This document shows, in pieces, positions 1 to 64,000 of a stretch of DNA of 64,000 nucleotides (its first letter is position 1; the number at the start of each line of letters is the position of its first letter). A program made the position numbers and the translations under genes. The stretch comes from an uncultured Desulfospira sp. (GTDB lineage: Bacteria; Desulfobacterota; Desulfobacteria; Desulfobacterales; Desulfobacteraceae): assembly GCA_963663165.1 (NCBI GenBank), contig OY760175.1, positions 4,704,001 through 4,768,000 of the forward strand, given 5' to 3'. The notes beneath the pieces are model-generated. The model saw nothing but the letters and a program-made list of their open reading frames with translations, made no database searches and was not told the DNA's origin.

Positions 1-2741
1 CTGGATCAGTGCGTTGTTTGGATAAAATTCTGCAAAATCACCTTCGTTGGCGGTCAGGATATAGGTTTTGCCGTCAACACTGAAGCTTGCCACGGCATCA
101 GGCATGTACATGCCGAATGCGGGAATATTTTCAAGGGTGATGTTCGAGTCTTCAATTACGTCCAGAGAATTTTCCGGCTGTCTTAAATCCTTGAAACCAA
201 GGCTCTTGACTGAAACCAGCGTCTTTGCCGCCACGTCAATAATAGCAATGGCGTTGTTTTCCTGGAGAGACACATAGGCTTTTCCGCAGTCTTCGGACAG
301 GGTGATGAACTCGGGTTCAAAGTCCGTAACCGCATCGGTTTTATCACGCGGTACCATAAAATAGCTGTCTTCCTGAGCTTCAACTCCTCGGACATGTACG
401 TCATCATCAATCTTTGATACATCGTCAAAATAGACATGGGTGACGGTGTCATCGTCCGTGCCGGATGTGCCCATGGTGTCCACAATGGTTACGGAACCTT
501 TGGGGTATAGGGAGATGTCGGACTGGGCGGCCCCTCTGGGTTCAGCCTCGTCAGCCGTGAGGATGTACCGTCCGTTTTGAGAGGCAACAACCATGTCCGG
601 ACCGAATCCTGCCTCATAGTGGTGGACATAGTTGCCGTCATAATCAAGAACCAGAACAATACCTTTTTTGCTGATGTAATCGTCTTCCTGTACTGACAAA
701 TAAATCCGGTCGTTAACGGTGCTGACGGACACGCAGCTCAGGTCGCCGTATGTAAAATCTGAAACGTTAGTTGCAAGAAGGCTTTCAATATTGATGGTTG
801 TTTTACTGGTAAGGTTTAAATAGCCGCTTGACGGATACCCGGTAGCCTGCAGGGTGACAATATCCAGGGTGGCGGGGCTTGTGGCACCGTTGACGATATA
901 GAATTTGCCGTTCTCCTTATTAAACTCAACCATCTCAGCCACGCCGCCGTCCGTATCCACGGTGCCGGCGCTGTATCCGGCGATTTTTCTGACGGTAATC
1001 ACATCCTCGGTATCCGGTCCCGGAGACTGGGTGGTGATGCCGCCTGAATAGACAGCCTCGCCTGATCCCACCGAATTCACCGCAGCAAGGGCAAAGTAAT
1101 AGGTGGTTCCGGAGTCAAGACCGTTGGCATAGCAATAGTCCGTCTTGCCGGAAAGAATCCGGGGCTCGGATGACAACAGGTTTGTTTTCGACTCACTCTG
1201 GTAAAAATAGTATTCATCGGCATCACCCGCACAGGTCCAGGTGAAGAGTACGGAAGATGTACCCGCCTCAACCGGCTGGGCTTCTGCTGTAAAGTCTTCA
1301 GGGGGTGTGGGGAACCCGCCGATCTCGATTTCTAGGATCTCACTGGTATTGCCCTGAAAATCCACGCCTGCAATGTAGACGTTGAGGGCATCCGGCTCAA
1401 GATCCGTCAGGGTAATGGTATTTCCTGCCACGCCATGTCGGCACTGGTGCCTGCCATGACGGTCTCTATGAACGGTGTTTCATCTCCTGCCTCATACACC
1501 ACGTAATAGAAGGTTCCTCCTTAATTTGCGGTAAACGTGACAGTGGCTTCGGTATAGCTGGTCCGGCTCCAGGAAGCATCTGAAAGCACTGGCGGTGTAA
1601 TATCATCGTATTCATGAATTTCCATAACCAGAATCGTGCTGACCATGTCGTCGGCATCCTTGGCGACAATGTAGACGTCCTTGGCACCGCTTGTGAGATC
1701 GGTAACGGTGAAGGCCACTTCGCCTGCCGTGCAGGCCGTGCCATCGACCGTGGTATCCAGTTCCGGCTGGTCAGCTCCGTCTTCCACCACGGCATAGTAG
1801 TACTCACACACCTCATTGGTAGTGAAGGTCACGACAGCTTGTTCCAGGCTGGTGCGTTCTGATGTTCCTGCGGTCAGAATGGGCGGCATCTCATCAATGC
1901 CCACAGCTTCAAAGTCGATGCCGGCTGTTGTGGCGAACTCCTCGGCTACCGAGCCGGGAACGCCGCGGATTAAAAGTGCGGTATTATGATTGTTGAACGC
2001 ATAACTGTTAATACATGTCACACTGTAGGGAATCGTGATTTCGGTCAGTTTTTCACAATTTTGAAATGCCCGGTTGTTGATCGTGGTCAGGCTGTTGGGA
2101 AGGTTGACCTCTCTTAGGTTGGTGCAATCGGAAAATGTATATTCATCAAGCAGAGTTACCCCGTATGGGATGGTAATGGATGTTAAGCCCGAACAATATT
2201 GGAATGCACTTTCTCCCATAACTTCAAGACCGTCCGGGAGGGTGATTCCCGTCAGGCCGATGCATTGGTAGAATGCATCCTCTCCGAGGGTTGTCACACC
2301 GGAGGAGATTTCGTAGATGCCGCTTCGGCCTTGGGGAAAAGAGACCAAGGTTGTCCCCGCTTTGTCGAACAATACGCCGTCCTGACTCATGAAAATCGTA
2401 TTTTCGCTGTCAACAATGATTTCCGTCAAGGACGTGCAAAAAGTAAATAAACGGTTAGTAAAATCTGTTATAGAGGCCGGTATTGTAATGGATGTTACGG
2501 TTGACCCGCTTGAAGAAAAAATAAATTTGTAATTGAGTTTTGTCACGGGCAGCCCGTCGATTTCGGCGGGGATTTCTACGGCACCACCTTCACCCTGGTA
2601 TTTTGTGAGGTAAATGTATGTACCGTAATTGTAGTAAGTCCAATCGCCGTCTTCCGTGGTATCAGCCAGGGCTGTCCCCGGAACAAGGCCCAAAAGTGCA
2701 AAAAGCACCAACATCATTGGTATCAATTTCAATTTTTTCAT
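1..2741 (-). pseudogene. Large secreted surface protein (signal peptide, BspA-type LRR_5 repeats, two Ig-like repeats, FN3, choice-of-anchor I / alkaline-phosphatase-associated domain), broken by a nonsense codon and a frameshift; 3' end runs off the window
   Basis: ORF 1521..2741 has a signal peptide and IxIPxSVTxIxxxAF repeats. After TAA at 1521-1523 the frame continues GGTFYYVVYEAGDETP, matching the previous repeat EVCEYYYAVVEDGADQP. A 1-nt shift near 1432 gives VAGNTITLTDLEPDALNVYIAGVD, then FN3-like GLDSGTTYYFALAAVNSVG, GGVAEMVEFNKENGKFYIVNG, PDMVVASQNGRYILTADEAEPR, EPEFITLSED, AYVSLQENNAIA and GMYMPD, open to base 1. Confidence 0.85.
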
Positions 2742-2861
2742 CAGTTCCTCTTTTTTAATTTTATTTTTCTGTCATGTGCAGTTCTGCTTTCCCATGGCAC
2801 TGCCCCTGGAAAGCCAGCCTGATGCTTCAATAGTTTGCATCGGTTAAGCCGGGCAGCCTGA

Positions 2862-3401
2862 CTAGCAGCTCCTGCGGCCCCGTCTTAAACCCGCCAGCCC
2901 CGCAAGGCCCGCGCCCAGCAGCAAGAGGGTGCCGGGAACCGGAACGGCGCTGATGTGGGTGCCGTTAACGGTAAAGGCGATGGCATTGCCGTCAACATCG
3001 GACAGGATAATGTTGGAAAGACTGATGCCGGAAAGGGCAGACTCATCCCCTGAAAAGGAGATGGTGGCCAGGGTGAAAGAGGCGGATTGAGTGCTGAAAT
3101 CCGCTGAATCGGTCAGGTAGGAAACAACCGCCAGATAAGCGGTTCCGGTTGCATATTCCTTATCACTCCTGTCTTCAGCATCATAAGAGTCAAAGCTGCC
3201 GAGTTCTTCAGTCAGGCTGTACTCATCAAAGGTGAGCAGAGTGCCATCATAGTTCACATCAAATTCAAACCCTGCCAGGTCCAGGTTTTCCAACCCGGAA
3301 ATGGTAATGTTAACTTCATAGGCGGTAGCAGATGTTGCCCCCATCACCACCAGACCAAAACAAAACATGATTGCTGCAATCAACTTCTTTGATAAAATCA
3401 T
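2862..3401 (-). CDS. Cohesin-like domain protein with a PEP-CTERM/VPLPA-CTERM sorting signal
   Basis: Signal peptide; LAGFEFDVNYDGTLLTF...LATISF...LSNIILSDVDGNAI cohesin-like pattern; C-terminal VPVPGTLLLLGAGLAGLAGLRRGRR. Confidence 0.8.
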   Translation of the reverse strand: MILSKKLIAAIMFCFGLVVMGATSATAYEVNITISGLENLDLAGFEFDVNYDGTLLTFDEYSLTEELGSFDSYDAEDRSDKEYATGTAYLAVVSYLTDSADFSTQSASFTLATISFSGDESALSGISLSNIILSDVDGNAIAFTVNGTHISAVPVPGTLLLLGAGLAGLAGLRRGRRSC

Positions 3402-3795
3402 GTGTCTTCTCCTTTTTTACGCTGTATTAAAATTATGCCCCGGACCTTTTGCCGGGGGCAGAAACCTAATAACACAGGTAAAAAAAATGATTGCCGCTGG
3501 ATTTTCAAAACCTGGCCCGAGATTTCCACTTTTAACATTTTAATCAAATTTTAACAAAAATACGGGGCTTTCCCGGGGCTCAAATTTCCGGGAAAACCCG
3601 CTAAGGACTGGGATGGCGTGGAAAATGCCGGGTCATTGGCCAAGGCAGGAAAGGATTCATTTGAAACGCTGACTTATCACATATTCAAAATCCCAGGTTT
3701 GACCCGAATATTTCAAGTTTTACTCTTGAATTTGAGTAAGGCGTGAACTAATATTTATAAAAGTGAAACATAAAGAAATAATTTGGAGATGAAAA

Positions 3796-44879: not shown

Positions 44880-45038
44880 ATGAACAGGGAAAAGATTGGA
44901 AAGACAAACCACAAGGCCCCCAGATTCAAGGATTACAGTGACGACTCTCTGGGGTGGGAAGAACGGCTGAATATGAAAAAAAACCGTAAGAAAAGAAAAT
45001 CCAAACGAAAAGATTTTGAGTTTAAGAACGAATATTAA
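44880..45038 (+). CDS. Unannotated 52-aa Lys/Arg-rich small protein
   Basis: AAGGA 7 nt before ATG; MNREKIGKTNHKAPRFKDYSDDSLGWEERLNMKKNRKKRKSKRKDFEFKNEY; fills the gap between the promoter and the speD-like gene. Confidence 0.65.
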   Translation: MNREKIGKTNHKAPRFKDYSDDSLGWEERLNMKKNRKKRKSKRKDFEFKNEY

Positions 45039-45066
45039 CCCCATCAGGGAAAGGAAACAAATAAAA

Positions 45067-45480
45067 ATGAATACATCTGCTGCAACGGCTTTAAAAATTG
45101 ACCCTTCAAATTTTCAGAATAGCGCGCCGGATGTCTGGGGGATTGCTTCTGCCATTGACATATACGAGTGCGATCCTGAAAAAATCAGAGATGCCGAGTT
45201 CATCAAACAATTTGTCGTGGAATTGTGTGATCTCATTGAGATGAAACGTTTTGGGGAAACCCAGGTTGTCCATTTTGGCGAGGATGAAAAAGTGGCCGGC
45301 TTTTCCATGATTCAGCTCATTGAAACCTCTCTGATTTCGGGTCATTTTGCCAACCTGACCAATGCGGTCTACCTGGATGTATTCAGCTGTAAAGCCTATG
45401 ATCCCGCAGTAGTCCGGGAATTTTCCCAAAAAGCCTTTGGCGGGGCCTGGTCCCATATCAATGTCACCTACCGGAAGTAA
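45067..45480 (+). CDS. Pyruvoyl-dependent decarboxylase proenzyme, S-adenosylmethionine decarboxylase (SpeD) family
   Basis: IDIYECD, GFSMIQLIETSLISGHF, YLDVFSCK; ATG 45067 follows AAAGGA. Confidence 0.85.
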   Translation: MNTSAATALKIDPSNFQNSAPDVWGIASAIDIYECDPEKIRDAEFIKQFVVELCDLIEMKRFGETQVVHFGEDEKVAGFSMIQLIETSLISGHFANLTNAVYLDVFSCKAYDPAVVREFSQKAFGGAWSHINVTYRK

Positions 45481-45488
45481 GGTGGAAT

Positions 45489-46511
45489 ATGAAACTTAAG
45501 ATCTATACCGATATCCGGGACTGCCAAACCCTGTGGGAGAGGCTCTGGCCGGAAAAAGAACTCTTTGACCTCTGGCAGGTCAGGGCCTGCTTCCATGAGC
45601 AGTTTCAGCGGCCGCTCAGATTTCATACGGTTGAATCCGACGGCCGGGTCCTGGGATTTTTGCCCTTAAGCTGGTGCGAAGAGTCAAACCAGTATGTTAT
45701 TTTTCCGGGAGAAACCTGGCATGGCAAGACCTGGATAGAGCAAAACCGGATCATTGCCCGGGACAAAGAGATCTTCGAGATGCTGATCCAGGCCGTGCCG
45801 GGACCGGTTCATCTAAGGTATCTGAGCCCAAGCCCGTTACTGGATACCCTGGGCCGGGCAACCGAGGACGAAAAGGGATACCTGTTTTATCCGGGCATCT
45901 TCAATTATAATTTTGAAAATTACTGGCTGGGGTTTTCCGGCAAATCCAGAAAAAACATTAAAAAAGAGATGGCCGCCCTTGAGGCCCTTAAGGTGAGTTT
46001 CAGGATCAATGAACTGGCGGATCTTGAAGACCTGTTCCGCCTGAACACCACCTCTTTTGTGGCCAATTCCTATTTTCATGACCCGCGGTTTCATGGGGCA
46101 TTCCAGCGGCTTGCCGTGCTGCTCAAAGAAATGGGTTGCCTGAGAATGACGGCCATCCGCATTGGCGGCCAGACAGCGGCAGTGGATATGGGCGCGGTGT
46201 TCAACAATACCTACACCCTCCTGGCAGGGGGCACCAGCCCCTGTTTTAAAGGGGTCGCAAAGCTGATTAACCTTCATCACATCGAGTGGGCCTGTAAAAA
46301 CCAAATCGGCACAGTGGATTTCCTTTGTGGCGATTTTAACTGGAAAGAACGGTTTCATCTTACCCCGAGACCCTTGTTTCTCATCGACGGCCAGGGCCCG
46401 GCCTGCCCGGTGCAAAATTTAATAGATCCCAAAGACTTTTATATCCGGGAAGCCGGGAACCAAACGGTTTCAGGTCCGGCACACGGCCATGAAGAACGCA
46501 TCTGCGCGTAG
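45489..46511 (+). CDS. GNAT-fold transferase (Acetyltransf_6 / CelD-BcsL / FemAB-like)
   Basis: FENYWLGFSGKSRKNIKKE; GVAKLINLHHIEWAC...VDFLCGDFNWKERF. Confidence 0.8.
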   Translation: MKLKIYTDIRDCQTLWERLWPEKELFDLWQVRACFHEQFQRPLRFHTVESDGRVLGFLPLSWCEESNQYVIFPGETWHGKTWIEQNRIIARDKEIFEMLIQAVPGPVHLRYLSPSPLLDTLGRATEDEKGYLFYPGIFNYNFENYWLGFSGKSRKNIKKEMAALEALKVSFRINELADLEDLFRLNTTSFVANSYFHDPRFHGAFQRLAVLLKEMGCLRMTAIRIGGQTAAVDMGAVFNNTYTLLAGGTSPCFKGVAKLINLHHIEWACKNQIGTVDFLCGDFNWKERFHLTPRPLFLIDGQGPACPVQNLIDPKDFYIREAGNQTVSGPAHGHEERICA

Positions 46512-47772
46512 CAAGGATCAAGTGCTGGTTGTCGGCACAACACCGGATTATATTCACTTTATACGGGAGAATTATCCCGGCAGGGCCCTGTTCCTGACAG
46601 ACCCAAAGGCCAGGCGCGGTGCCGCCGAGCCTGCCCCTTGTGCCGGTGAAGAGATCCTGGTGGGGCTATATAATGAACAAGTCGTCTTGAAGGTCCTTTC
46701 CTCGCATTTGAGAACCCACGGGATAAAGATTTCCGGGGTGGCCTGTTTTGACTGTGAGGCCTTGGAGCTGGCTGCTGTGATCGCATCAGAGTTTGGCCTG
46801 GGCTTTGTGAGCGTCGAAGCGGTCCGCAACTGCCGGGACAAGTTTGTGTGCAAACAGATCTGGCAGGAAAATCAGATCCCGTGCCCTGAAATCCAGCCGG
46901 TGAATACCCTGGAACAGGCCCAGGCGTTTCTTAGGGAATGTCCCCGCGGGATTGTCCTCAAGCCCTTTTACGGCAGCGGCAGTGAGCTGGTGTTCCGATG
47001 CAAAACAGCAACAGACTGTGAAACCTCGTTTAACACCATCCGGGAAGGGCTTGGCAAAAGAAAGTCCCACCCGCTGTTTAAAAAACAATCTTCAACCCGG
47101 TTTCTCATGCTGGCCGAGGAATTTGCAGAAGGCCCCGAGTACAGCTGTGACATGTTCATCGACAACGGCGCGGTTAGAATGATTCGCCTGGCCAAAAAAA
47201 TAAAGCTGCCATACCAGCCCTTTGGCACCATTGCCGGATATATCCTGCCGGCCAGACTGCCCGAAGGCATGGATGGCGGCCAGTTTGAAGCCATGCTGCT
47301 GAAGAGCGCCCGGGTTCTCGGGGTCAACAAAGGGATTTGTATGGTGGATTTTGTGGTTAATGATCTCGAGGCAAAGCTCATTGAGCTGACCCCCCGCCCG
47401 GGCGGGGACTGTCTGCCCGAGCTCATGAGGACGGCCGGGAACCTGGATATGATCGGGTTAACCCTGGATTTCGCACAGAAAAGGCCCATCAATTTAAATG
47501 ATACCAAAGGTTTCCCCGTTCATATCGGGTTAAGAATCCATGCCCATAAAGCCGGGGTTTTAAAATCCTTTAACATGGATGAACTGGCATCTGACAGCCG
47601 GATTAAACGAATCAATATTACCCGGAAACCCGGCCATCGGATTACCATGCCGCCGGAGGATTATGACTCCTGGCTTCTTGGCCACATGATTATCAAGCCT
47701 GAAAAGTCCAGCCATCTGGAGTCCCAGAGCCTTTTGATCGGCAAGCGTTTGAAAGTGGAGATCGCGTCATGA
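46489..47772 (+). CDS. ATP-grasp ligase (L-amino-acid-ligase-like)
   Basis: CRDKF, VLKPFYGSGSELV, EEFAEGPEYS, IELTPRPGGD. Confidence 0.88.
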   Translation: MKNASARSKDQVLVVGTTPDYIHFIRENYPGRALFLTDPKARRGAAEPAPCAGEEILVGLYNEQVVLKVLSSHLRTHGIKISGVACFDCEALELAAVIASEFGLGFVSVEAVRNCRDKFVCKQIWQENQIPCPEIQPVNTLEQAQAFLRECPRGIVLKPFYGSGSELVFRCKTATDCETSFNTIREGLGKRKSHPLFKKQSSTRFLMLAEEFAEGPEYSCDMFIDNGAVRMIRLAKKIKLPYQPFGTIAGYILPARLPEGMDGGQFEAMLLKSARVLGVNKGICMVDFVVNDLEAKLIELTPRPGGDCLPELMRTAGNLDMIGLTLDFAQKRPINLNDTKGFPVHIGLRIHAHKAGVLKSFNMDELASDSRIKRINITRKPGHRITMPPEDYDSWLLGHMIIKPEKSSHLESQSLLIGKRLKVEIAS

Positions 47773-49025
47773 CCCCGGCCTGTGAAAGCACGGTATTGTC
47801 TAAACCTTATTTAAACGACTTTATTGACGGGTTTCTGGCAAGGCGGCAGCTTTTCTGCCGCCTGACGGAACAATTCGGCTCTCCCCTTTATGTACTGGAA
47901 ACCCCGGTGCTTCAACGCCGGGCCCAGCAGTTTAAAACTGCCATGAGCAGCCGGCTGCCGGACTGCGGGTTTTATTTTGCCGTGAAAAGCAACGCCATGC
48001 CCGAGATTTCCAGGGGCCTGCTGGGCCAGGGCTTTGGACTGGATGTTTCCAGCGGGGTGGAACTATCCCTGGCGCTTGGTCTTGGCGCTAAGGCCATTGT
48101 ATTTTCCGGCCCGGGAAAAACCCGGGCCGAACTTGAACAGGCCGTGGACCATGCCGACAAGGTAACGGTGCTGCTGGACAGTGAAGGTGAGCTTGGCCGG
48201 CTAAACGCCGTTGCCAAAGAAAAAAACAAACCGGTTCATGTGGGGCTGCGGCTGAACACCAACCCTGAGGGGGTGTGGAGAAAATTCGGTATCCTTTTGG
48301 AGGAGCTTGGGCCGTTATACGATCAGATCAGGGATTCCGATTACCTTAAGTTTTCTGGATTGCAGTTTCACTCTTCATGGAACCTGGGCCCGGAACGGCA
48401 GACAGCGTTTATCAAACAGCTTGGCGAGCATTTGAAAGCCATGCCGGACCGCTTTTTTGAGGATTTGAATTTCATTGATATCGGCGGGGGATACTGGCCT
48501 TCCCAGGGGGAGTGGCTGGTTTCTGAAAACCCGCTGGTTCACACCCATATCCAGGCGGCATCCATTGAGATATTTGCCGACTGCCTGGCCTCGGCTTTAA
48601 CGGCGCATATTTTCCCCTTGAAGCCCTGCCGGATCTGTTTTGAGCCCGGCCGCTGGATCTGCAATGATGCCATGCATATCCTCATTACCGTGGTGGACTG
48701 CAAAACCAAAGATCTGGTGATCACAGACGCCGGGACCAATGCCATCGGCTGGGAGCGCTTTGAAACCGACTATTTCCCGGTGATCAACCTGACAAGGGCC
48801 AGTCTTGAGGAAAAACCCTGCCAGATCTTAGGGTCATTGTGTACCCCCCATGATGTCTGGGGCCAGGCCTATTTTGGAAAAGAAATTTTAGAGGGGGATG
48901 TGCTGATGATCCCCACCCAGGGCGCCTATACCTACAGTTTAAGGCAAAATTTTATCAAACCGTTGCCTCACATTGTTGTGGTTGATGAGAACAATCCCCC
49001 CTTTTGTATAACAGCCACGGGCTGA
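47769..49025 (+). CDS. PLP-dependent decarboxylase, Orn/DAP/Arg family (LysA-like)
   Basis: SPLYV, YFAVKSN, DVSSGVEL, SGPGK, IDIGGG, FEPGR, GSLCTPHD, GAYTYS. Confidence 0.9.
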   Translation: MTPACESTVLSKPYLNDFIDGFLARRQLFCRLTEQFGSPLYVLETPVLQRRAQQFKTAMSSRLPDCGFYFAVKSNAMPEISRGLLGQGFGLDVSSGVELSLALGLGAKAIVFSGPGKTRAELEQAVDHADKVTVLLDSEGELGRLNAVAKEKNKPVHVGLRLNTNPEGVWRKFGILLEELGPLYDQIRDSDYLKFSGLQFHSSWNLGPERQTAFIKQLGEHLKAMPDRFFEDLNFIDIGGGYWPSQGEWLVSENPLVHTHIQAASIEIFADCLASALTAHIFPLKPCRICFEPGRWICNDAMHILITVVDCKTKDLVITDAGTNAIGWERFETDYFPVINLTRASLEEKPCQILGSLCTPHDVWGQAYFGKEILEGDVLMIPTQGAYTYSLRQNFIKPLPHIVVVDENNPPFCITATG

Positions 49026-54162: not shown

Positions 54163-54344
54163 ATCCTTCCGTTCTTGTTTGGTTGCATTGCCCCCGTCTT
54201 TTCTGGTATATCAGACGGAATATATTTCTCCGGGGCGGTCCGGTTTATCAAACTGCAGCGTCGGAAAGCCTTGCCGGAGAGAGTATACCAAATGATATGG
54301 TGAGTTTGATGCGCCGGGCATCCGGGCAGAACAAAGGAGTTCAC

Positions 54345-54812
54345 ATGGGAAGATGCATAACCACATACAGATGTAAATACTGGGTTGCCGGTCTTCTTGG
54401 GTTAATGCTGGTCCTGGCCTGGCCGGTTTTGGGTCTGGCCGAAGAAAGGGTTGCCATTAAAGCGGCCATCGCGAACATCAGGTCCGGCCCCGGGACCAAT
54501 TATGAAGTCCTATGGCAGGTGGAACAATACCATCCTTTTCTGGAGGTTAAAAAATCCGGAAAATGGATTAAGGTCAAAGATTTTGAAGGGGATGCGGCCT
54601 GGATACATGAATCCCTTGTGGACAAAATCGAAAGCGTAATTACCAAAAAGGCCAAGTCCAATGTCCGGTCCGAACCCTCAACCAAGTCCCGTATTCTGTT
54701 TACGGTTGAGCGGGGTGTCCCGTTTAAGGTCCTCAAACGGCAGGGCGACTGGATTCAGATAGAGCATGCAGATGGAGAAAAGGGGTGGATTTACAAAAGC
54801 CTTGTCTGGTGA
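54345..54812 (+). CDS. Secreted tandem bacterial SH3-domain protein
   Basis: AGGAG RBS, signal peptide, ANIRSGPG...WI and SNVRSEPS...GWI. Confidence 0.88.
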   Translation: MGRCITTYRCKYWVAGLLGLMLVLAWPVLGLAEERVAIKAAIANIRSGPGTNYEVLWQVEQYHPFLEVKKSGKWIKVKDFEGDAAWIHESLVDKIESVITKKAKSNVRSEPSTKSRILFTVERGVPFKVLKRQGDWIQIEHADGEKGWIYKSLVW

Positions 54813-54878: not shown

Positions 54879-55571
54879 ATGGCAGAGCAGCGGGTTTCAA
54901 ACGAGAGAAAAAGAGAGTTGGAGCAGATAGACCCTTTCCAGGAAAACGTGTTAAAAACGGCGGCCTGGGCAAAGGCCCATAAAAAACCGATTTTGATCGG
55001 CATAGCGGCAGTGGTTGCCGTTATCGCGATATTTTCCGGTATTATGGCCAGTTTAAAAAATTCGGAAAACACGGCCTCGGAACTGGTTGCCCAGGCCATT
55101 TCCAAATATGTGACCGAGGCCGGCAAAGACCAGAAAAAAGGATATGAGGCGGTTAAAGACGACTTTAACACCATTTTTGAAGATTACGCCAACACCAGTG
55201 CCGGAAAGACGGCCAGGGTTCAGTTCGCAAAAATTTGTTATGATGCGCAAGATTATGATACGGCCTTTGCCATGTACAGCCATGCCTATGATATCTTTAA
55301 AAAAGATAAAGGCCTGAAAAATTTTTTGCTGACAGCCATGGGCAACGTCTGTCTGGCCAAGAAAGAGACGGAGAAGGCGCAGTCTTATTTTTCCAAAGTG
55401 GAAAAGTCTGATTCAGATCTTTCCAAAGACGGGGCACTGTTCGCTTTGGCCGGCCTTTACGAGGCAGAGAATAAATCTGATCTGAGCCAGAACCTGTATG
55501 AAAAGATTGCTTCCGATTACAAGGACTCTATTTATGGGCAGATAGCAAAAAACAAATCGGCGGCCCGATAA
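54879..55571 (+). CDS. Membrane-anchored tetratricopeptide-repeat protein (YfgM-like)
   Basis: Single TM helix followed by TPR-like helices. Confidence 0.8.
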   Translation: MAEQRVSNERKRELEQIDPFQENVLKTAAWAKAHKKPILIGIAAVVAVIAIFSGIMASLKNSENTASELVAQAISKYVTEAGKDQKKGYEAVKDDFNTIFEDYANTSAGKTARVQFAKICYDAQDYDTAFAMYSHAYDIFKKDKGLKNFLLTAMGNVCLAKKETEKAQSYFSKVEKSDSDLSKDGALFALAGLYEAENKSDLSQNLYEKIASDYKDSIYGQIAKNKSAAR

Positions 55572-55596
55572 CCGTCCGTAAAGATTTCCTGTAAAA

Positions 55597-55679
55597 CTGA
55601 AAAAGGCTGTAAGCTTTACGCTTACAGCCTTTTCCAGAAAAGGAAAAAAAGATGAAAAAACTAACCGAGGTCAGTTGAA
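55597..55679 (-). ncRNA. Candidate sigma-54-dependent small RNA, about 80 nt
   Basis: Bounded by a sigma-54 promoter and a terminator, with no ORF between them on this strand; 5' hairpin AACUGAC-CUCG-GUUAGUU and a pyrimidine-rich linker. Confidence 0.6.
55600..55633. terminator. Bidirectional terminator, perfect 14-bp stem
   Basis: AAAAGGCTGTAAGC-TTTAC-GCTTACAGCCTTTT. Confidence 0.88.
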
Positions 55680-55689
55680 AATTATATAA

Positions 55690-55705
55690 TGCAAAAGCCC
55701 TGCCA
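55690..55705 (-). promoter_or_regulatory. Sigma-54 promoter
   Basis: TGGCAGGGCTTTTGCA on the minus strand, near-consensus. Confidence 0.8.
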
Positions 55706-55836
55706 TTGATCAAAATAAAACTTCATTTTCCCTCTTTTCCTTTTTAACAGCCCGCCGGTCAACGATTTTCTCGTTTTAAAAATTTTTACGCCCTTTATTG
55801 GGGACCAGTTTGCAGCCCTGAATGGGGGAGGTAACA

Positions 55837-55996
55837 GTTCAAAAATTTGAACACTTCCATATCCGTGGCGGGGCGGATTATAGTTAAGTATAAGAGATAA
55901 TAAGGTTTTATTCAGAGTTCAAAATTTTGAACTTTTTTGAATGGGATTTGGATTGGCTTTTATTTCAATGTGTTGGGGAAGTTTAAAATTTTGAAC
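55837..55996. promoter_or_regulatory. Three GTTCAAAATTTTGAAC palindromes (candidate enhancer sites)
   Basis: 55837-55852 GTTCAAAAATTTGAAC; 55917-55932 GTTCAAAATTTTGAAC; 55981-55996 GTTTAAAATTTTGAAC. Confidence 0.8.
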
Positions 55997-56014: not shown

Positions 56015-57388
56015 CTATTTATCAAGGTCATATTTTTTGAGCTTCTGGTTCAGCCCGCTTTTCCCAATCCCCAAAATCCGGGCGGCCTTTGTCTGAACAT
56101 TGCCTGACATTTCCATGGCCCGCTGGATCATCCATTTTTCAACGGCGGCAAGGGTCTCAGACAGGCCTGATTCCTGGGATATCCCTTCCAGGCTGAAACC
56201 CGGGGCGCAGCTTTCACGGATCTGAGGGGGCAGATCCGTTAAGGAGATCATATCCCCGGTGGAGAGGATGGCCGACCGTTCAATGACATTTTCAAGCTCC
56301 CGGACATTGCCGTTCCAGGAATGGTCATACAGTACCTGAATGGCCTCTTTGTTTATCCCCTTAATGGGCCGGTTGGCGGATTCCGGGCCATGGGTGTACT
56401 TTTCGATAAAATGATTGATCAGCAGAGGGATGTCCTCTCTTCGTTCCCGCAGCGGGGGAAGGACGGCCTTGACCACATTGAGACGGTAATACAGGTCTTC
56501 CCTGAAATTTCCTTTTTGAACCTCTTGTTCAAGGGTTTTATTGGTGGCGGCAATGAGCCTGAAATCAACCCGGATGGGCTCGGTCCCGCCCACCCGCTCA
56601 ACCGTTTTTTCCTGGAGAACCCTGAGCAGCTTGACCTGCAGCGGCATGGGCAGTTCGCCGATTTCGTCTAAAAACAGGGTTCCGCCGTGAGCCAGCTCAA
56701 ACCGCCCTTTTTTCATGTTGGCCGCGCCCGTGAACGCCCCTTTTTCATGGCCGAACAGTTCGCTTTCAAGAAGGGATTCGGCAAAAGCCGAACAGTTCAC
56801 CGCCACAAGGGGGGCTTTGCTTCTGGCGCTGTTGTAATGGATGGATTTGGCCACAAGCTCCTTGCCTGTCCCGCTCTCCCCCTCAATCAGCACTGAGGCA
56901 TTGGTGGGGGCCACCTTCTTGATGGTTTCATACAACTCCTGCATGGGCTTGCTTTTTCCGATGATATGATCGAACTGGTACCGGCTGTGCATGGCATCCC
57001 TTAGCAGGTTGTTTTCTTCAACGATCTTATACAGGGCCAGGGCCTTGGCAATATGGGCAATCAGGGCTTCGTTTTCAAAGGGTTTTTGAATAAAGGTGTG
57101 GGCCCCCTTGTGCATGGCTTCAACCGCTTTTTCAACACTGCCGTGAGCCGTCATGACGATGACCGGCAGATCCGGTTTCAATTTTTTGGCCTTTTCAAGC
57201 AGGTCAATGCCGCTCATCCCGGGCATTTTAACGTCGGTGAGAACCAGGTCAATGAGCTGGGTATTTAATATATCCAAGGCTTCCATACCGCTTGAGGCAG
57301 TCAAAGATGCATACCCCTCCTCTTCAAGAACTTCGCTTAGAATCAGGGGGTAATGTTTTTCATCGTCAACAATTAATATGGTTTCCAT
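56015..57388 (-). CDS. Sigma-54-dependent response regulator (NtrC/PilR-like)
   Basis: ILIVDDE, LTDVKMP, GESGTGKE, GAFTGA, WNGNVREL, HTH. Confidence 0.95.
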   Translation of the reverse strand: METILIVDDEKHYPLILSEVLEEEGYASLTASSGMEALDILNTQLIDLVLTDVKMPGMSGIDLLEKAKKLKPDLPVIVMTAHGSVEKAVEAMHKGAHTFIQKPFENEALIAHIAKALALYKIVEENNLLRDAMHSRYQFDHIIGKSKPMQELYETIKKVAPTNASVLIEGESGTGKELVAKSIHYNSARSKAPLVAVNCSAFAESLLESELFGHEKGAFTGAANMKKGRFELAHGGTLFLDEIGELPMPLQVKLLRVLQEKTVERVGGTEPIRVDFRLIAATNKTLEQEVQKGNFREDLYYRLNVVKAVLPPLRERREDIPLLINHFIEKYTHGPESANRPIKGINKEAIQVLYDHSWNGNVRELENVIERSAILSTGDMISLTDLPPQIRESCAPGFSLEGISQESGLSETLAAVEKWMIQRAMEMSGNVQTKAARILGIGKSGLNQKLKKYDLDK

Positions 57389-58821
57389 TCAAACTCCTGA
57401 ATCGGTAGAAAAATTTCAAAAACCGCGCCTGAAGGAACGGCATTGGACACCTCAATCCGGCCATAATGGGCTTCAATAATATTTTTAACGATCCCTAAAC
57501 CAAGGCCGGTGCCGGTGTCCTTGGAGGTATAGAAAGGGGTCCAGATTTTTTTTAACAGGTCCGGGTCTATTCCGTCTCCGTTGTCGGCAAAGCAGATGTG
57601 GATCTGTTCGTCCTTAACACCGGTTGAAATGGTAATGGTTCCGTTTCCCTTTACCGCCTGGAAGGCGTTGAGCAGGATGTTTAAAAACGCCTGGTAGAGC
57701 ATGGGCGGATCTGCCGGAATTTCAGGGATATCCGGGTTAAGCATCTGGATAATTTCAATGCCGGATCCCTCCATCCGGGGGGAAAGAAAGGTAAGGTTTT
57801 TCTCAATCACATCATTGATCTGGCAGGGCCTTAAATCTGGTTTCCTAGGTCTTGCAAAATCAAGGAAATCCGTGATGATATTGTCCAGTCGGGTGGATTC
57901 CTCCACAATAATGTCCGGGATATTGCTGTTGACTTCCAGACGGTCTAATTTCTTTTTTAAAAGCTGGGCACTGCTTTTAATGATCCCCAAAGGATTTCTG
58001 ATTTCATGTGATACGCCGGCGGTCATTTCTCCGATAGCGGACAGGTGTTCTGCCTGCCGGAGTTTCTCCTCAAGTTTTAGCCGTTCTTCCGCCCGCTGTT
58101 CAAGGGTTTTTTCTCCCTGTTTGACAATGTATCTTAAAATGAGAAATAAAATCGCCATTACCCCGGCGCAGGAGGCCACAATCAATCCCTGTAGTTTGAA
58201 CACCTGCTGGTAATCATGGGATATATCCCGGACGATTTCAATGACGCCGATAACGGTCCGGTTATCTGATTTGGAAAGCAGAATTTCCTGCATGAGGGGA
58301 GCAAAGGTGACAATTTTGGTTTCCTGGGGATACCAGAACAAGAGTTCAAGAAAACTGCCTTTCTGGATCAGCTTTGAAGAGGCTTCTTTGTTCATGGCTT
58401 TTTGATAGTAGACCCCACCGGCATCTGTTTTACCGATTTTGGACTCATCAAAGCTGTATCCAATGACATTATCGGTACCATATATATTGACCATGTCTAC
58501 ATGAAAACTGTGGAGCGTGGATTTAATCACCGCATCCAACAGCCTGCTCTGCTCTTTTTCCCTTAATTTGATTTCACCCTTACGCAGGGCCACCGGGGCA
58601 ATAAATCTTAAAAAGATCTGATGGTTAAGGTTTTCAACCAGGAGCATGTTATACTCTTTGCTCTTTTCTAAGAGAATATTTCTTACCCAGTGGGCATTTA
58701 AAGCGGCAATAATTATGGTGGCCGTCAGCATGACGATCATGCTGGAGAAAGTAAATGCCTTGACCAGTATAAATGGTCTTGTCCCTTGTGCGGCGGGGGT
58801 GGGGGAATACCTTTTTTTCAT
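57373..58821 (-). CDS. Membrane sensor histidine kinase (PilS/NtrB-like)
   Basis: 2 TM segments, HEIRNPL, NILLNA, DNGDGI, PFYTSK.TGTGLGL. Confidence 0.95.
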   Translation of the reverse strand: MKKRYSPTPAAQGTRPFILVKAFTFSSMIVMLTATIIIAALNAHWVRNILLEKSKEYNMLLVENLNHQIFLRFIAPVALRKGEIKLREKEQSRLLDAVIKSTLHSFHVDMVNIYGTDNVIGYSFDESKIGKTDAGGVYYQKAMNKEASSKLIQKGSFLELLFWYPQETKIVTFAPLMQEILLSKSDNRTVIGVIEIVRDISHDYQQVFKLQGLIVASCAGVMAILFLILRYIVKQGEKTLEQRAEERLKLEEKLRQAEHLSAIGEMTAGVSHEIRNPLGIIKSSAQLLKKKLDRLEVNSNIPDIIVEESTRLDNIITDFLDFARPRKPDLRPCQINDVIEKNLTFLSPRMEGSGIEIIQMLNPDIPEIPADPPMLYQAFLNILLNAFQAVKGNGTITISTGVKDEQIHICFADNGDGIDPDLLKKIWTPFYTSKDTGTGLGLGIVKNIIEAHYGRIEVSNAVPSGAVFEIFLPIQEFEWKPY

Positions 58822-59034: not shown

Positions 59035-60081
59035 ATGAGATTCAGTGGAAATAAGCATCTTGTCGGCCTGGACATCGGTTCAACCTTTATCAAGGTGGCT
59101 GAACTCAAAATTTCTAAAAAGAGAACAAGTCTTAAGAAATTCGGCCTGGCAAGAATTCCTCATGGTGCCATTATAGAAGACCGGATCAAAGATAAGGATA
59201 CGGTTGCCGGCATCATCAAAAAACTGTTTAAAGATCATAAAATAAAAGAAAAGAACGTGGCCATATCCACGGGCGGGCATTCTGTGGTGATCAAGACCAT
59301 CAGCACGGCCAAGGTGCCGGCCAAGGAACTTCACAAAACCATATTTTCCGAAGCCGAACAGTATATCCCCTATGATGTGGAAGACGTCAATATCGACTAC
59401 CAGATTCTCGGGGACAGTGAATATTCATCGGAACAGATGAATGTCCTTCTGGTGGCGGCCAAAAAAGATCTGGTGGCCGAATATATTGACCTGATTCAAA
59501 CGGCCGGCCTGAACCCCAAAATCATTGATGTGGATACTTTTGCCCTTCAAAATGTTTACGAAACCCTTCCCGGGCTTTCTCCGGACACGGTGGCCCTGCT
59601 GGTGGATGTGGGAGCCTCCAAGACCTCTTTGAATATTCTTAAAGGCAGCAATTCGCTGATGATGCGGGACGCGGTGTCGGGAACCAACCAGATTCTTGAG
59701 GCCTTGTCTGACAGGCTCGGGATCGGGATTGAAGAGGCCGAAACCCTTTTTAGAGGAAAAAAAGAGGAAGCCCTGATCCGGGAGGTTTCAGATCAGGTGT
59801 CCAGTGCCTGGTGTTCACAGATCTGTGAGGTGGTCAACAGTTTTCGCTCTAACGCCAGTGAAAAGGGGCTTTCAAAAGTGCTGCTCAGCGGGGGAGGGGC
59901 GTCTGTCAGAGGGTTTGCCCAGAAACTTCAATCTGAGATTGATGCGGCTGTCAGCATTATGGAGCCTTTCAGCGGACTGGAAATAGACGAGAAAATGTTT
60001 CCGGCTTCCCAAATCAGAGAACTTGGCCCCCAGGCACCCATTGCGTTGGGACTGGCCATGAGACGGGTGGATGACAAATGA
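59035..60081 (+). CDS. pilM: Type IV pilus assembly protein PilM
   Basis: VGLDIGS, EAEQYIPY, VLLVAAKK, VDVGA, LSGGGA, LGLAMR. Confidence 0.95.
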   Translation: MRFSGNKHLVGLDIGSTFIKVAELKISKKRTSLKKFGLARIPHGAIIEDRIKDKDTVAGIIKKLFKDHKIKEKNVAISTGGHSVVIKTISTAKVPAKELHKTIFSEAEQYIPYDVEDVNIDYQILGDSEYSSEQMNVLLVAAKKDLVAEYIDLIQTAGLNPKIIDVDTFALQNVYETLPGLSPDTVALLVDVGASKTSLNILKGSNSLMMRDAVSGTNQILEALSDRLGIGIEEAETLFRGKKEEALIREVSDQVSSAWCSQICEVVNSFRSNASEKGLSKVLLSGGGASVRGFAQKLQSEIDAAVSIMEPFSGLEIDEKMFPASQIRELGPQAPIALGLAMRRVDDK

Positions 60082-60668
60082 TACGAGTCAATCTGTTACC
60101 TTTCAGGCTTGAGCGCAAAAAGGAAAATATCCGCCGCCAGGTGTCCGTATTTTTTCTGGTGATTGTCTTTTCACTGCTGCTGTTAACCTGGTATACCCTT
60201 GGCCTTGGCAAAAAAATTGAACAAACCCGGCTGGATATTGAAGCGGTTAACCGGCAGATTGCCCTTTACAAGGGGAAGGCAGACCGGGTGGCCCAAATCA
60301 AAAAAGACCTGGAAGTTCTCAGGAATAAACTTGCGATCGTTGACTCCCTGAAGAACAAACGAAACGAACACTTTGATCTGGTCGCGGAACTGCCCGGCCG
60401 GCTGGTGCCTGAAAAGATGTGGATTGAAGCCTTGAAAGCAGACAGCACAAAGGTTGAGATCAAAGGGGTGGCCTTTGACAATCCCACCATTGCCGAGTTT
60501 ATGAAAAATCTTGAGGCCTTAGGCTGGTTTACCCAGGTTGACCTGAAGCAATCCGTGGTCAGAAAGCTTAACGACGGCCATATGCTCAAGGCATTTGAAC
60601 TGTCCTGCATGAAGCCGGTTACCCCGGAACCTGAAGAAACCGATAAGAAAAAGAAAAAAGGTAAATAA
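60078..60668 (+). CDS. pilN: Type IV pilus assembly protein PilN
   Basis: MIRVNLLP, TM segment, IAEFMKNL; operon order. Confidence 0.92.
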   Translation: MIRVNLLPFRLERKKENIRRQVSVFFLVIVFSLLLLTWYTLGLGKKIEQTRLDIEAVNRQIALYKGKADRVAQIKKDLEVLRNKLAIVDSLKNKRNEHFDLVAELPGRLVPEKMWIEALKADSTKVEIKGVAFDNPTIAEFMKNLEALGWFTQVDLKQSVVRKLNDGHMLKAFELSCMKPVTPEPEETDKKKKKGK

Positions 60669-61321
60669 TGGCGCAAAAAGCAACTGAGACGTTAAAGACC
60701 CGGGTTGCCCAGGCATTTGAAAGGGTTGGCCGGTTAACCCAGAAACAGCGCCTTTTAATCTGTGCCGGTGTTTTCCTGGCCATAGGCGGCGGCTATTATT
60801 ATCTGGTTTATAGCCCTAAGGTTCAGCAGTTAAGCCAGCTGACCGAAGACCATGAACGGGTGGCCAAGAATCTGGATGTTTATAAGGCCAGGGCAAAGGC
60901 TTTGCCCAAATGGGAAAAGGAAATGCAGGCGGTTGAACAGGAGTTCAATTTTGCCATGGAGGCCCTTCCGGACAAGCGGGAAATTCCCGCCATGCTTACC
61001 GGGATTTCCCAGGCCGGAAGCATGGCCGGGCTCGATTTCCTCCTTTTTCAGCCCACAGCCGAAGTGAACAAGGAATTTTATAAAGAGATCCCCTTGTCCA
61101 TGAAAGTGGAGGGGGGGTATCACCAGATGGCCGATTTTTTCTTCCGGATTGCCCATATGGGCCGGATTATCAATATCAATGACCTGGATATGGTCCGGCC
61201 CCAAAAGGGAGAGGGTGACATTCAAATGAGTTGTACAGCGGTCACCTATATGTTTGTAGAGCCTCAAGATGAGGGCAAGGATAAAGACAAGGGCAGCAAA
61301 AAGGGCCATAAAAAGGGATAG
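60668..61321 (+). CDS. pilO: Type IV pilus assembly protein PilO
   Basis: LPDKREIPAML, FYKEIP, GGYHQMADFF, RIINI. Confidence 0.92.
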   Translation: MAQKATETLKTRVAQAFERVGRLTQKQRLLICAGVFLAIGGGYYYLVYSPKVQQLSQLTEDHERVAKNLDVYKARAKALPKWEKEMQAVEQEFNFAMEALPDKREIPAMLTGISQAGSMAGLDFLLFQPTAEVNKEFYKEIPLSMKVEGGYHQMADFFFRIAHMGRIININDLDMVRPQKGEGDIQMSCTAVTYMFVEPQDEGKDKDKGSKKGHKKG

Positions 61322-61355
61322 CCCTAGTATTTAAGATCATATATTAGGAACTGGC

Positions 61356-62036
61356 ATGGGAACAGGTATGAGAATTAAAAAAATATCAGCTGTGATGGTT
61401 GTTCTGGCCGTATGTTGTGCTGCGGTTTTATGTTCATGCCAGGAAGAAACAACGGCCCAAAATCAGCCGGCCACCCCTGAGGTGGTGTCGGCTGCCATCC
61501 CAAAGCAGCCGGCCGCTCCTGAAAAAATAGAACTGCCGCCCCCTGAAAAGATACCGCCTTTGGCGCCTGGCCGGGATGTGGAAAGTGCTGTGGGCCAACC
61601 CCCGCCCCCCCAGTTGGATCCAGACCAGAAAGAGCTTGTGGCCAATCTGATCATGGGCCAGGGCAAAAAATATGAGCCAAAGGTGAAAACCGACCCCTTT
61701 GCCCCCCTGGTGCAGGAAGAACCTTTGGACGGCACCGGCCGAAAGGTTGAGATAAGGGCCCCGTCCCGTCCCTTGACCCCGTTGGAAAAAATGGAGTTAA
61801 GCCAGCTTAAGCTTGTGGCGGTCCTTGAAACGAACCACCAGAAACTGGCCATGGTCGAGGAATCCTCAGGCAAAGGGTATGAGGTCAAGGTGGGAACCTA
61901 TATCGGAAAAAACTCAGGCAAGGTGACACAGATTAAATCCGGCAGCATTGTCATAAAAGAAGTGATTAGAGATTATAAAGGAAAGCCGAAAGAGCGTTTC
62001 CAGGAAATGAAACTTCACAAAGAAGATGGGGAATAA
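61356..62036 (+). CDS. pilP: Type IV pilus assembly lipoprotein PilP
   Basis: LCSC lipobox, DPFAP, PLEKMELSQLKLV, VGTYIGKNSGKV. Confidence 0.9.
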   Translation: MGTGMRIKKISAVMVVLAVCCAAVLCSCQEETTAQNQPATPEVVSAAIPKQPAAPEKIELPPPEKIPPLAPGRDVESAVGQPPPPQLDPDQKELVANLIMGQGKKYEPKVKTDPFAPLVQEEPLDGTGRKVEIRAPSRPLTPLEKMELSQLKLVAVLETNHQKLAMVEESSGKGYEVKVGTYIGKNSGKVTQIKSGSIVIKEVIRDYKGKPKERFQEMKLHKEDGE

Positions 62037-62037
62037 T

Positions 62038-64000
62038 ATGCCTTTTTTTCAGTTTAACATGATTATTTCCAGGATGATAATGGGAGGCCTCATTATCGTT
62101 TCATCCCTGATTTGCGGCTGTGTTTCCCAAAACGGCCAGACCGCGTCCATGGAAGATCAGCCGGCCGTGGTTGAATCAACAGAGGCTGCCGGCGGCAAAA
62201 CCGTGGCAGCCACCGGTGATGACGCGGCCGGACAGGGCATGATTACAGCGGTTGATGCCAGGGAAACCGATACCGGGGTTGAAGTGTTGATTCAGGGGGA
62301 CGCCTCCCTGAAGCGGTATACCACCATTAAGCAGGCATTTCCCTTTGGCGTTGCCGTGTACCTGTCTGAAACCGGTATTTCAGAAGGGCTGGCCCCGAAT
62401 TCCTCAGGGGTTGATATGGTCCAGGACATCAAGGTGGGATACGCAGATCAGGCCAACACCACGGCCAAGGTGGAAATCCTGCTAAAACAGGATGTTTCCT
62501 ATACGGTTGAACAGGATGACAGTTTGTTGAAGCTGGATTTTACCGGGGAACAGGATCGCAGCCAGGTGCTCTCCCTGACCGGGAACTCAGGCCAGTCCCC
62601 TAAGACCGCTCAATTTGTTTCAGAAACAACCGGTTCCCAGACAGCCTTTTCCGGCGGCCAGGCCCGGTTAACGGATATTTCATTTGATACGGAGCAGACC
62701 GGAAGGTCCACCGTTTTTGTGGAAACCAGCAGCCCGGTAAGCTACGATCTCGTCGCCAAATCAGGCAACCTCTTGTCCCTTAACCTGTATGATACCCTTA
62801 TCCCTGAAGTTCACCAGCGACCCCTGTCCACCCGTTATTTTGATTCAGCCGTTGAACAGATCCTTCCCGGACAGCTGAGCCCGGGCTCCAAAGACGGGGC
62901 CATTACCATTCAGGTCAGAGAGCAGGTGCCCTACCGGGTATTTCAGGAGCAAAACCGAATTTTTGTTGTGTTTGAGCCGTCTTCGGTCAGACCCCCGGCT
63001 TTCAGCAAAGCCAAGGTTGATTTGAATTCGGATGTTCCCGTACAGCAAGCGTCGTCGGGGCCGGCAAAAGACATTGATGACGGCCGGCAGCTGGCAAGTT
63101 CTTCAGAGGGGGACTCGGTAACGGAGGATATTGATTCCCTAACCGGTTCCGGAGAAAGGCAGTACACCGGAGAGAAAATCAAGCTGGATTTTTTTGATAC
63201 AGATATCAGAAATGTATTTAAAATAATAAAAACGGTTTCAGGCTATAATTTTGCCATTGATAATGATGTCCGGGGAAGGGTGACCCTGAGCCTGGAAGAT
63301 CCGGTTCCCTGGGATCAGGTTCTGGACCTGGTATTGAAAATGAATCAGCTGGGCAAGAAAAGAGAAGGAAACGTCTATCGAATCGCTACCCTGGAAACCA
63401 TTAAGGATGAAGAAGAAAAATTACAGGCCGCCATTGATGCCCGGAAAAAATCCCTGGAAGATAAGAAAAGCCTTGAGCCCATTTATACCGAGTTCATCGC
63501 CATCAATTATGCCGATGCCCTGGAAATCAGCAAGCATATTTATCCTGTCTTAAGCAAGGACGAAGAAGATAAGGATGTCGACTGGAAAACAAAGCCTGAA
63601 ATTACGGACCGGATCCGCGGGGCCATGACCATAGATACCAGAACCAATACCATCATCATTACCGATATCCGGGAAAAACTGGACCACGCCTATGAAATTA
63701 TCAAACAGCTGGATCGGGTCACCCCGCAGATTATCATTGAAGCCAGGGTGGTTGAGGTTTCCAAGAGTTTTGTCAGAAGCCTTGGCATTGGATGGAATCT
63801 GTCCAATGCCTCGGGCACCACATCGGGGTTTGTGGATGACTTTGATCTTTCCTTGAACAGCTCCGGGGTTGCCGGGAAGTTTTCCTTTTTTAATATCGCG
63901 GGATCATCGGTGGCCGCCTTAAACGCCCAGTTAGAGGCCTCTGAGGAGCAGGGGGATATAAAGATAGTCTCCTCTCCCAGAATCTTAACCCTGGACAATA
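62038..64000 (+). CDS. pilQ: Type IV pilus secretin PilQ (3' end outside the window)
   Basis: MPFFQFNMI...LICGC lipobox, AMIN-like domains, YTGEKIKLDFFDTDIRNVF, VPWDQVLD, QIIIEARVVEV, SSPRILTLDN. Confidence 0.93.
   Translation, partial: MPFFQFNMIISRMIMGGLIIVSSLICGCVSQNGQTASMEDQPAVVESTEAAGGKTVAATGDDAAGQGMITAVDARETDTGVEVLIQGDASLKRYTTIKQAFPFGVAVYLSETGISEGLAPNSSGVDMVQDIKVGYADQANTTAKVEILLKQDVSYTVEQDDSLLKLDFTGEQDRSQVLSLTGNSGQSPKTAQFVSETTGSQTAFSGGQARLTDISFDTEQTGRSTVFVETSSPVSYDLVAKSGNLLSLNLYDTLIPEVHQRPLSTRYFDSAVEQILPGQLSPGSKDGAITIQVREQVPYRVFQEQNRIFVVFEPSSVRPPAFSKAKVDLNSDVPVQQASSGPAKDIDDGRQLASSSEGDSVTEDIDSLTGSGERQYTGEKIKLDFFDTDIRNVFKIIKTVSGYNFAIDNDVRGRVTLSLEDPVPWDQVLDLVLKMNQLGKKREGNVYRIATLETIKDEEEKLQAAIDARKKSLEDKKSLEPIYTEFIAINYADALEISKHIYPVLSKDEEDKDVDWKTKPEITDRIRGAMTIDTRTNTIIITDIREKLDHAYEIIKQLDRVTPQIIIEARVVEVSKSFVRSLGIGWNLSNASGTTSGFVDDFDLSLNSSGVAGKFSFFNIAGSSVAALNAQLEASEEQGDIKIVSSPRILTLDN

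Follow-up and report, generated by a model that had tools for sequence, protein, structure and literature searches.

Organization of the locus

The window, i.e., the whole stretch of 64,000 nucleotides that was analysed, carries a minus-strand pair of genes for a sensor kinase and a sigma-54 activator. A gap of 443 bases, downstream of that pair, separates the activator gene from a convergent gene for a TPR-domain membrane protein. The features are as follows (no strand is assigned to the palindromes and the terminator).

59035..63999, plus strand: pilM to pilQ, divergent neighbours of the kinase gene, for which no connection with the RNA was found
57373..58821, minus strand: sensor histidine kinase, 482 aa (HisKA and HATPase_c)
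56015..57388, minus strand: NtrC-family sigma-54 activator, 457 aa (REC, AAA+, Fis-type HTH)
55981..55996: distal palindrome, predicted activator site, one mismatch
55917..55932: 16-bp palindrome without mismatch, some 225 bases from the promoter, predicted activator site
55837..55852: proximal palindrome with one mismatch, some 146 bases from the promoter, predicted activator site
55690..55705, minus strand: sigma-54 (−24/−12) promoter, GG-N10-GC spacing
55593..55679, minus strand: predicted small RNA of some 85 nt, its ends estimated from the spacing to the promoter and from the terminator
55659..55676, minus strand: 5' hairpin, 7 bp, found in family copies and missing from most copies outside the family
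55636..55663, minus strand: seed, an unpaired pyrimidine tract complementary to the RBS, start and first codons of a porin gene
55597..55637: intrinsic terminator, bidirectional
54879..55571, plus strand: TPR-domain membrane protein gene, convergent, a conserved neighbour that has the terminator in common with the RNA

The kinase has a periplasmic domain between two membrane segments (residues 16-46 and 207-234). Its close homologues bear generic labels only; those from named organisms place the source within the Desulfobacteraceae. We infer that the 457-aa NtrC-family protein is the activator of the small RNA.

Three other regions may be mentioned. An exported protein with tandem bacterial SH3 domains is encoded upstream of the TPR gene (window 54342-54812) and is kept nearby in several relatives. 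Downstream of another sigma-54 activator, window 45016-49025 contains S-adenosylmethionine-decarboxylase-like, GNAT-like, ATP-grasp and diaminopimelate-decarboxylase-like genes (labels read from the translations); polyamine-related synthesis is possible. Elsewhere in the genome, a likely major pilin gene (G000:C1:690372-690764) is preceded by a separate sigma-54 site, and no gene for an activator lies within some 30 kb of it.

Palindromes and promoter

The sequence-only reading of this DNA had described three 16-bp palindromes and a near-consensus sigma-54 promoter in the gap. All are present: one palindrome is perfect and two have one mismatch, and the promoter lies at 55705-55690 (minus strand). 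The GG-N10-GC motif of the latter has the spacing of the sigma-54 consensus; its position places +1 near 55679. Within one mismatch, the 16-base palindrome occurs in the 6.74-Mb genome as these three copies only, and the gap palindromes are the sole cluster within three mismatches. No other convincing promoter with the same palindrome was found in the genome; the RNA is therefore likely the main output of the system.

Anatomy of the predicted RNA

The predicted fold begins with a 7-bp 5' hairpin, continues with an unpaired tract and ends in an 18-pair terminator (z = −8.1; none of 200 shuffles folds as well), i.e., the order 5' hairpin, anti-RBS tract, terminator that had been proposed. The terminator, previously called perfect, is indeed there but consists of 17 Watson-Crick pairs plus one G-U. 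It is bidirectional and therefore also serves the convergent TPR gene, which ends at 55571. The absence of an ORF was likewise borne out, none of 45 aa or more being found in the gap. An 8-codon frame on the plus strand mirrors the tract; its length in relatives is 3 to 40 codons.

Rfam has no match in the window, and the best score of a local scan is 26.5 bits vs. a threshold of 50. The families checked include Qrr, Pxr, GlmY, MicF, MicC and RybB, and the gathering threshold is reached for none of them. Nothing on this RNA was found in a search of mainly open-access literature. It is almost certain that a real, conserved and uncatalogued regulatory RNA gene lies here.

Conservation of the module

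Among the 30 best regulator loci of the family (own locus included), the module is directly downstream in 22. One of the remaining 8 ends at a contig edge and 7 have no module there; in each of the 7 genomes concerned a copy is located elsewhere. At least one copy is found in 34 of the 36 family relatives, and the two misses (G009 and G015) are genomes 80-81% complete. Several genomes carry the RNA gene two or three times, always with a separate promoter.

In the alignment of 30 copies, pairing is kept in 91.8% of cells, and both sides have changed in 19 of the 23 pairs. Both stems covary; none of 500 shuffles reaches 19/23 two-sided pairs and every slid control is lower, figures that are not to be read as a probability since the structure was derived from one aligned sequence and the genomes are kin. 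The most constant portion of the RNA is the unpaired tract. Conservation in relatives had been named as a check on the idea of a small RNA, and a protein gene in its place (e.g., a pilin) as the finding against it: the module is kept with covarying stems, and in the 30 loci inspected neither a pilin nor any other conserved ORF takes its place.

A pattern scan with one genome per species gives at least 120 loci and at least 121 matches. Desulfonema magnum, Desulfobacter latus, Desulfamplus magnetovallimortis and Desulfatitalea alkaliphila are cultured organisms among the carriers. Among the matches listed, 73 of the 80 titled loci are Desulfobacterales or unspecified deltaproteobacteria-type records, and 113/121 have a terminator-like hairpin. 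The palindrome is upstream of 101 of these 113 hairpin copies vs. 3 of 76 control stretches, at 100-250 bases from the promoter with peaks near 140 and 225 (again among the matches listed). A regulator is within 2.5 kb in 27/76 only of the matches listed; the palindromes therefore travel with the RNA gene. Across copies the −24/−12 promoter is conserved, and its spacing to the RNA is constant. An IHF-like motif was considered and rejected: it is seen in 34/75 upstream stretches vs. 12/75 controls, but the A+T content (0.69 vs. 0.56) confounds the comparison; none is found within this window.

Outside the family the distribution is patchy. Of 20 regulators examined from the order's other families, 10 are followed by the module, and two further copies are elsewhere. 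The strict pattern is present in 4/15 genomes of the same order and in 3/386 outside it, a pattern that misses the shortened form. Outside the order, 86 genomes have a regulator match, the best-scoring 22 of which (52-58% identity) were read by eye. All three elements, a promoter, a pyrimidine tract and a terminator, are recognized in sixteen of these 22, and a related palindrome in 14 of the sixteen; five have no module and one has no DNA at that place. The copies outside the order have a reduced length, and their tract is mainly anti-Shine-Dalgarno. With a covariance model of the family, one copy in the own genome scores high (86.9 bits; the next match reaches 32.2), whereas scores are low for distant copies, with 20 matches at E<=1 among 31 loci.

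Some loci have particular arrangements. Tandem RNA copies with separate sigma-54 promoters occur in Desulfonema magnum (L169:2501-2852), where the two seeds differ slightly, and at L318/L323 (G310:C1:4038576-4039134). Outside the order, a convergent Era-like GTPase (a label read from a visible P-loop) often replaces the TPR gene (L370, L375, L376, L377, L379, L381, L382). In Neomoorella stamsii (Bacillota; L153:2501-2559) and at the untitled L218, a sigma-54-like promoter, an anti-start tract and a hairpin are found with no palindrome, either by chance or as an independent RNA.

Candidate target

The complement of the tract, within one mismatch, has one further site in the genome, over the RBS and start at G000:C1:6618317. 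The gene there encodes 409 aa with a signal-peptide-like beginning and a terminal phenylalanine. The predicted structure is a beta-barrel (pLDDT 75.6) and the best fold matches are AlgE and the C. jejuni MOMP (E 5e-16). Porin_4 of Pfam scores 25.8 bits, below the cut-off of 27, and a sequence search of the PDB with the protein gives no match. From this modelling the product is predicted to be an outer-membrane beta-barrel porin.

The perfect match between seed and porin start is 23 bases (55638-55660), vs. 15 for the next best start, and the predicted duplex reaches 28 contiguous pairs when G-U is counted. The porin start ranks first (−30.2 kcal/mol) of 4681 starts, which are simple gene calls made in this analysis, in a near tie with that of a 156-aa exported protein (−30.1). 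With 12 shuffled seeds the porin ranks 230-2362. Co-folding of the RNA with the porin message gains about 25 kcal/mol over the separate folds and the terminator is retained. The start of this 409-aa porin is a concrete candidate target. The starts of the regulator and kinase messages rank 3074 and 2400, respectively, and feedback on them was rejected.

An exact 21-mer was searched in 37 genomes and found at 23 places (reversed control: 0), i.e., 18 RNA copies, one of them a contig-overlap duplicate, and five porin-like starts. The five genes encode 390-432 aa, and three of the products are 18-32% identical to the porin of the window genome. In a selected set of near-matching candidate target stretches, 7/16 are porin-like. 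It must be kept in mind that seed and target are both low in sequence complexity.

Hfq (PF17209) was not found in any of the 6 genomes searched, with a search that detects it in 5 of 14 control genomes. This result fits the long, nearly perfect duplex. A FadL/TodX-type outer-membrane transporter gene (L062:4789-6087) follows the target porin and itself ranks 13 among the predicted targets.

Seed and porin across genomes

Own seed and own porin start were compared by eye. The match is 25 bases in G059 and 20 in G026; the G047 seed matches its own porin over 19 bases and a second porin over 15. A lysine-codon variant of the seed in G046 and G047 is matched by one porin each, and not in G054. With porins taken from the protein search, the pairing is bulged or mismatched in G003, G013, G016, G028, G031, G033, G037, G045, G051, G054, G056 and G058. 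In G007 the seed is one base shorter than the porin start. In G050 a porin start matches 20 bases, yet no copy is seen behind the regulator; porin starts may thus share this form independently. The single-protein porin search finds relatives in only 10/36 genomes, a number too small to compare the whole set. By eye, seed-target covariation appears partial.

G037 has two porin-like genes within 7 kb of regulator and RNA (G037:C1:618983-627810; L111, L326, L332). Divergent pairs of two porin types are also seen in G047 and G054.

Comparison with known systems

In enterobacteria, MicF, MicC, MicA and RybB pair in trans over the RBS and start of porin messages. The action predicted for the present RNA is MicF/MicC/RybB-like, i.e., an unpaired seed against a porin translation start. 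In the Hfq-less Campylobacter and Helicobacter, CJnc190 and RepG direct a C/U-rich tract to a purine-rich translation start. The likeness is a pyrimidine tract set against a translation start without Hfq, while promoter type and targets differ; sequences were compared through Rfam only. NcS25 of Burkholderia also pairs in trans at the start of a porin message and has a bidirectional terminator in common with a convergent gene, and no sigma-54-like motif was found upstream of ncS25 (PMC10117139). Compared with NcS25 and the MicF group, the system here has a predicted sigma-54 promoter, dedicated activator sites and a long near-perfect duplex, and no Hfq was found. No sequence relationship to either was detected.

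Sigma-54 RNAs encoded beside their activators form the second group of comparison. Qrr with LuxO and GlmY with GlrK/GlrR are of this kind, and the extra copies in some of our genomes recall the Qrr paralogues. Qrr requires Hfq, which was not found here. Pxr of Myxococcus xanthus is likewise a sigma-54 RNA beside its activating two-component system, PxrK/PxrR (PMC10217877). Size, structure and predicted target of the present RNA differ from those of Pxr, Qrr and GlmY, and there is no Rfam match.

A similar layout is known from a sulfate reducer. In Desulfovibrio vulgaris the sigma-54 regulators DVU0679 (with Dv_sRNA2) and DVU0653 drive ncRNAs just downstream (PMC3333781, PMC4641369). As predicted here, the regulator acts at 2-3 palindromic sites to control an ncRNA encoded behind it. 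The binding sites and DNA-binding domains are unlike ours (compared by eye with rows of the supplement), and no target is reported for these RNAs, in contrast with the porin predicted here. DseA was considered as the RNA behind DVU0679 and rejected, since it is a SAM riboswitch RNA (10.1101/803072). Our palindrome resembles the sites listed for DVU3381, whose system bears the label envelope stress response. This is a lead only, and that system controls protein genes, unlike the RNA here.

Proposed function and alternative explanations

In the sequence-only reading, the two-component system has as its output a small RNA that is made from a sigma-54 promoter and carries an anti-RBS tract; the conserved module and predicted target lend support to this. 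Judged from sequence, the sigma-54 RNA probably blocks translation of the porin at its RBS and start, likely without Hfq. The steps would be: (i) the kinase would sense a periplasmic signal (the envelope state is a guess); (ii) the phosphorylated regulator would bind the upstream palindromes; (iii) the sigma-54 promoter would be opened and the RNA made; (iv) the RNA would pair with the porin message over its RBS, start and opening codons; (v) ribosomes would be excluded and the porin level would drop. Similar starts of other exported proteins are likely weaker targets.

A broader reading is considered unlikely: the RNA would be a general damper of exported proteins, reading a strong Shine-Dalgarno, an A-rich spacer and the opening lysine codons of signal peptides, and the porin would be the best-fitting member only. 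It is favoured by the top 25 predicted starts, 21 of which are signal-peptide-like by a crude rule vs. 887/4681 (19%) overall and 3-12/25 with shuffled seeds, and 6 of which belong to barrel-like proteins vs. 45/4681; the shorter, nearly pure anti-Shine-Dalgarno tract outside the order points the same way. However, the 23-base perfect run exists in the porin alone, and each of the five sites where the exact 21-mer lies outside an RNA copy is porin-like. Moreover, signal peptides are enriched with either half of the seed by itself (14/25), and the enrichment is therefore partly compositional.

It is quite unlikely that the RNA is real and acts other than by occlusion, i.e., by protecting or activating the porin message, or by using its tract to titrate another RNA or an RNA-binding protein as a decoy. 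Decoys are known among sigma-54 RNAs beside activators: CrcZ is one, and so is GlmY. CsrA, which binds GGA at ribosome-binding sites, is present, and the duplex would cover the GGA at the ribosome-binding site; the imperfect pairing in many genomes would also be in line with such a role. Against it, the pairing spans Shine-Dalgarno and start codon, an arrangement that as a rule prevents initiation, and the RNA has an anti-GGA tract rather than repeated GGA loops.

It is very improbable that no functional RNA exists and that what is conserved is the TPR gene's terminator together with the remnant of a promoter, a micro-ORF or the scar of a deletion. The terminator is bidirectional and one is needed by convergent genes, and the tract on the plus strand reads as an RBS and start codon, but promoter, palindromes and seed are conserved jointly, also away from both neighbours and in the extra copies. 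The plus-strand frame lies behind the terminator and has 3-40 codons, and a scar is opposed by the 30 loci, which have neither a pilin nor a common ORF.

The identification of the pair as PilS/PilR, with an RNA acting on type IV pili, had also been put forward; it is hardly credible, the divergent pilM-pilQ genes adjoining the kinase and the sigma-54 site of the best pilin gene (no activator beside it) being outweighed by a kinase with two membrane segments around a periplasmic domain, by the lack, in front of that pilin gene, of any palindrome copy at up to four mismatches and by pilA and pilMNOPQ starts ranking 878-3484 of 4681. PilS is a multi-pass sensor without a large periplasmic domain. 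The PilR model is absent from the best 25 NCBIfam rows of the search, and the best pilin gene is 4 Mb away, so that a pilA-pilR linkage is not observed.

Beyond porin silencing in this genome, a more tentative and rather doubtful scenario is that of an ancient unit of the phylum: a short anti-Shine-Dalgarno RNA whose seed would have been extended later, in Desulfobacterales, over the start and lysine codons, silencing a whole class of exported and outer-membrane proteins without Hfq. If true, the extended-seed RNA would be an envelope-stress brake built independently of sigma-E/RybB, with the export tag read as RNA.

Significance

Desulfobacterales are major sulfate reducers in marine sediments, and no described base-pairing regulatory RNA was found for them in the literature searched. 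The RNA here is uncatalogued, is laid out like Pxr, Qrr and DVU0679 and, by analogy, likely works like MicF/MicC. A likely output is assigned to a widely conserved two-component system with generic labels only. The predicted circuit is complete and testable, leading from the kinase through the activator with its binding site to the promoter, the RNA and finally the porin. If true, it would be a case in which a sigma-54 RNA controls a porin and Hfq is not needed. The porin level would in turn set substrate uptake and the entry of biocides in these organisms.
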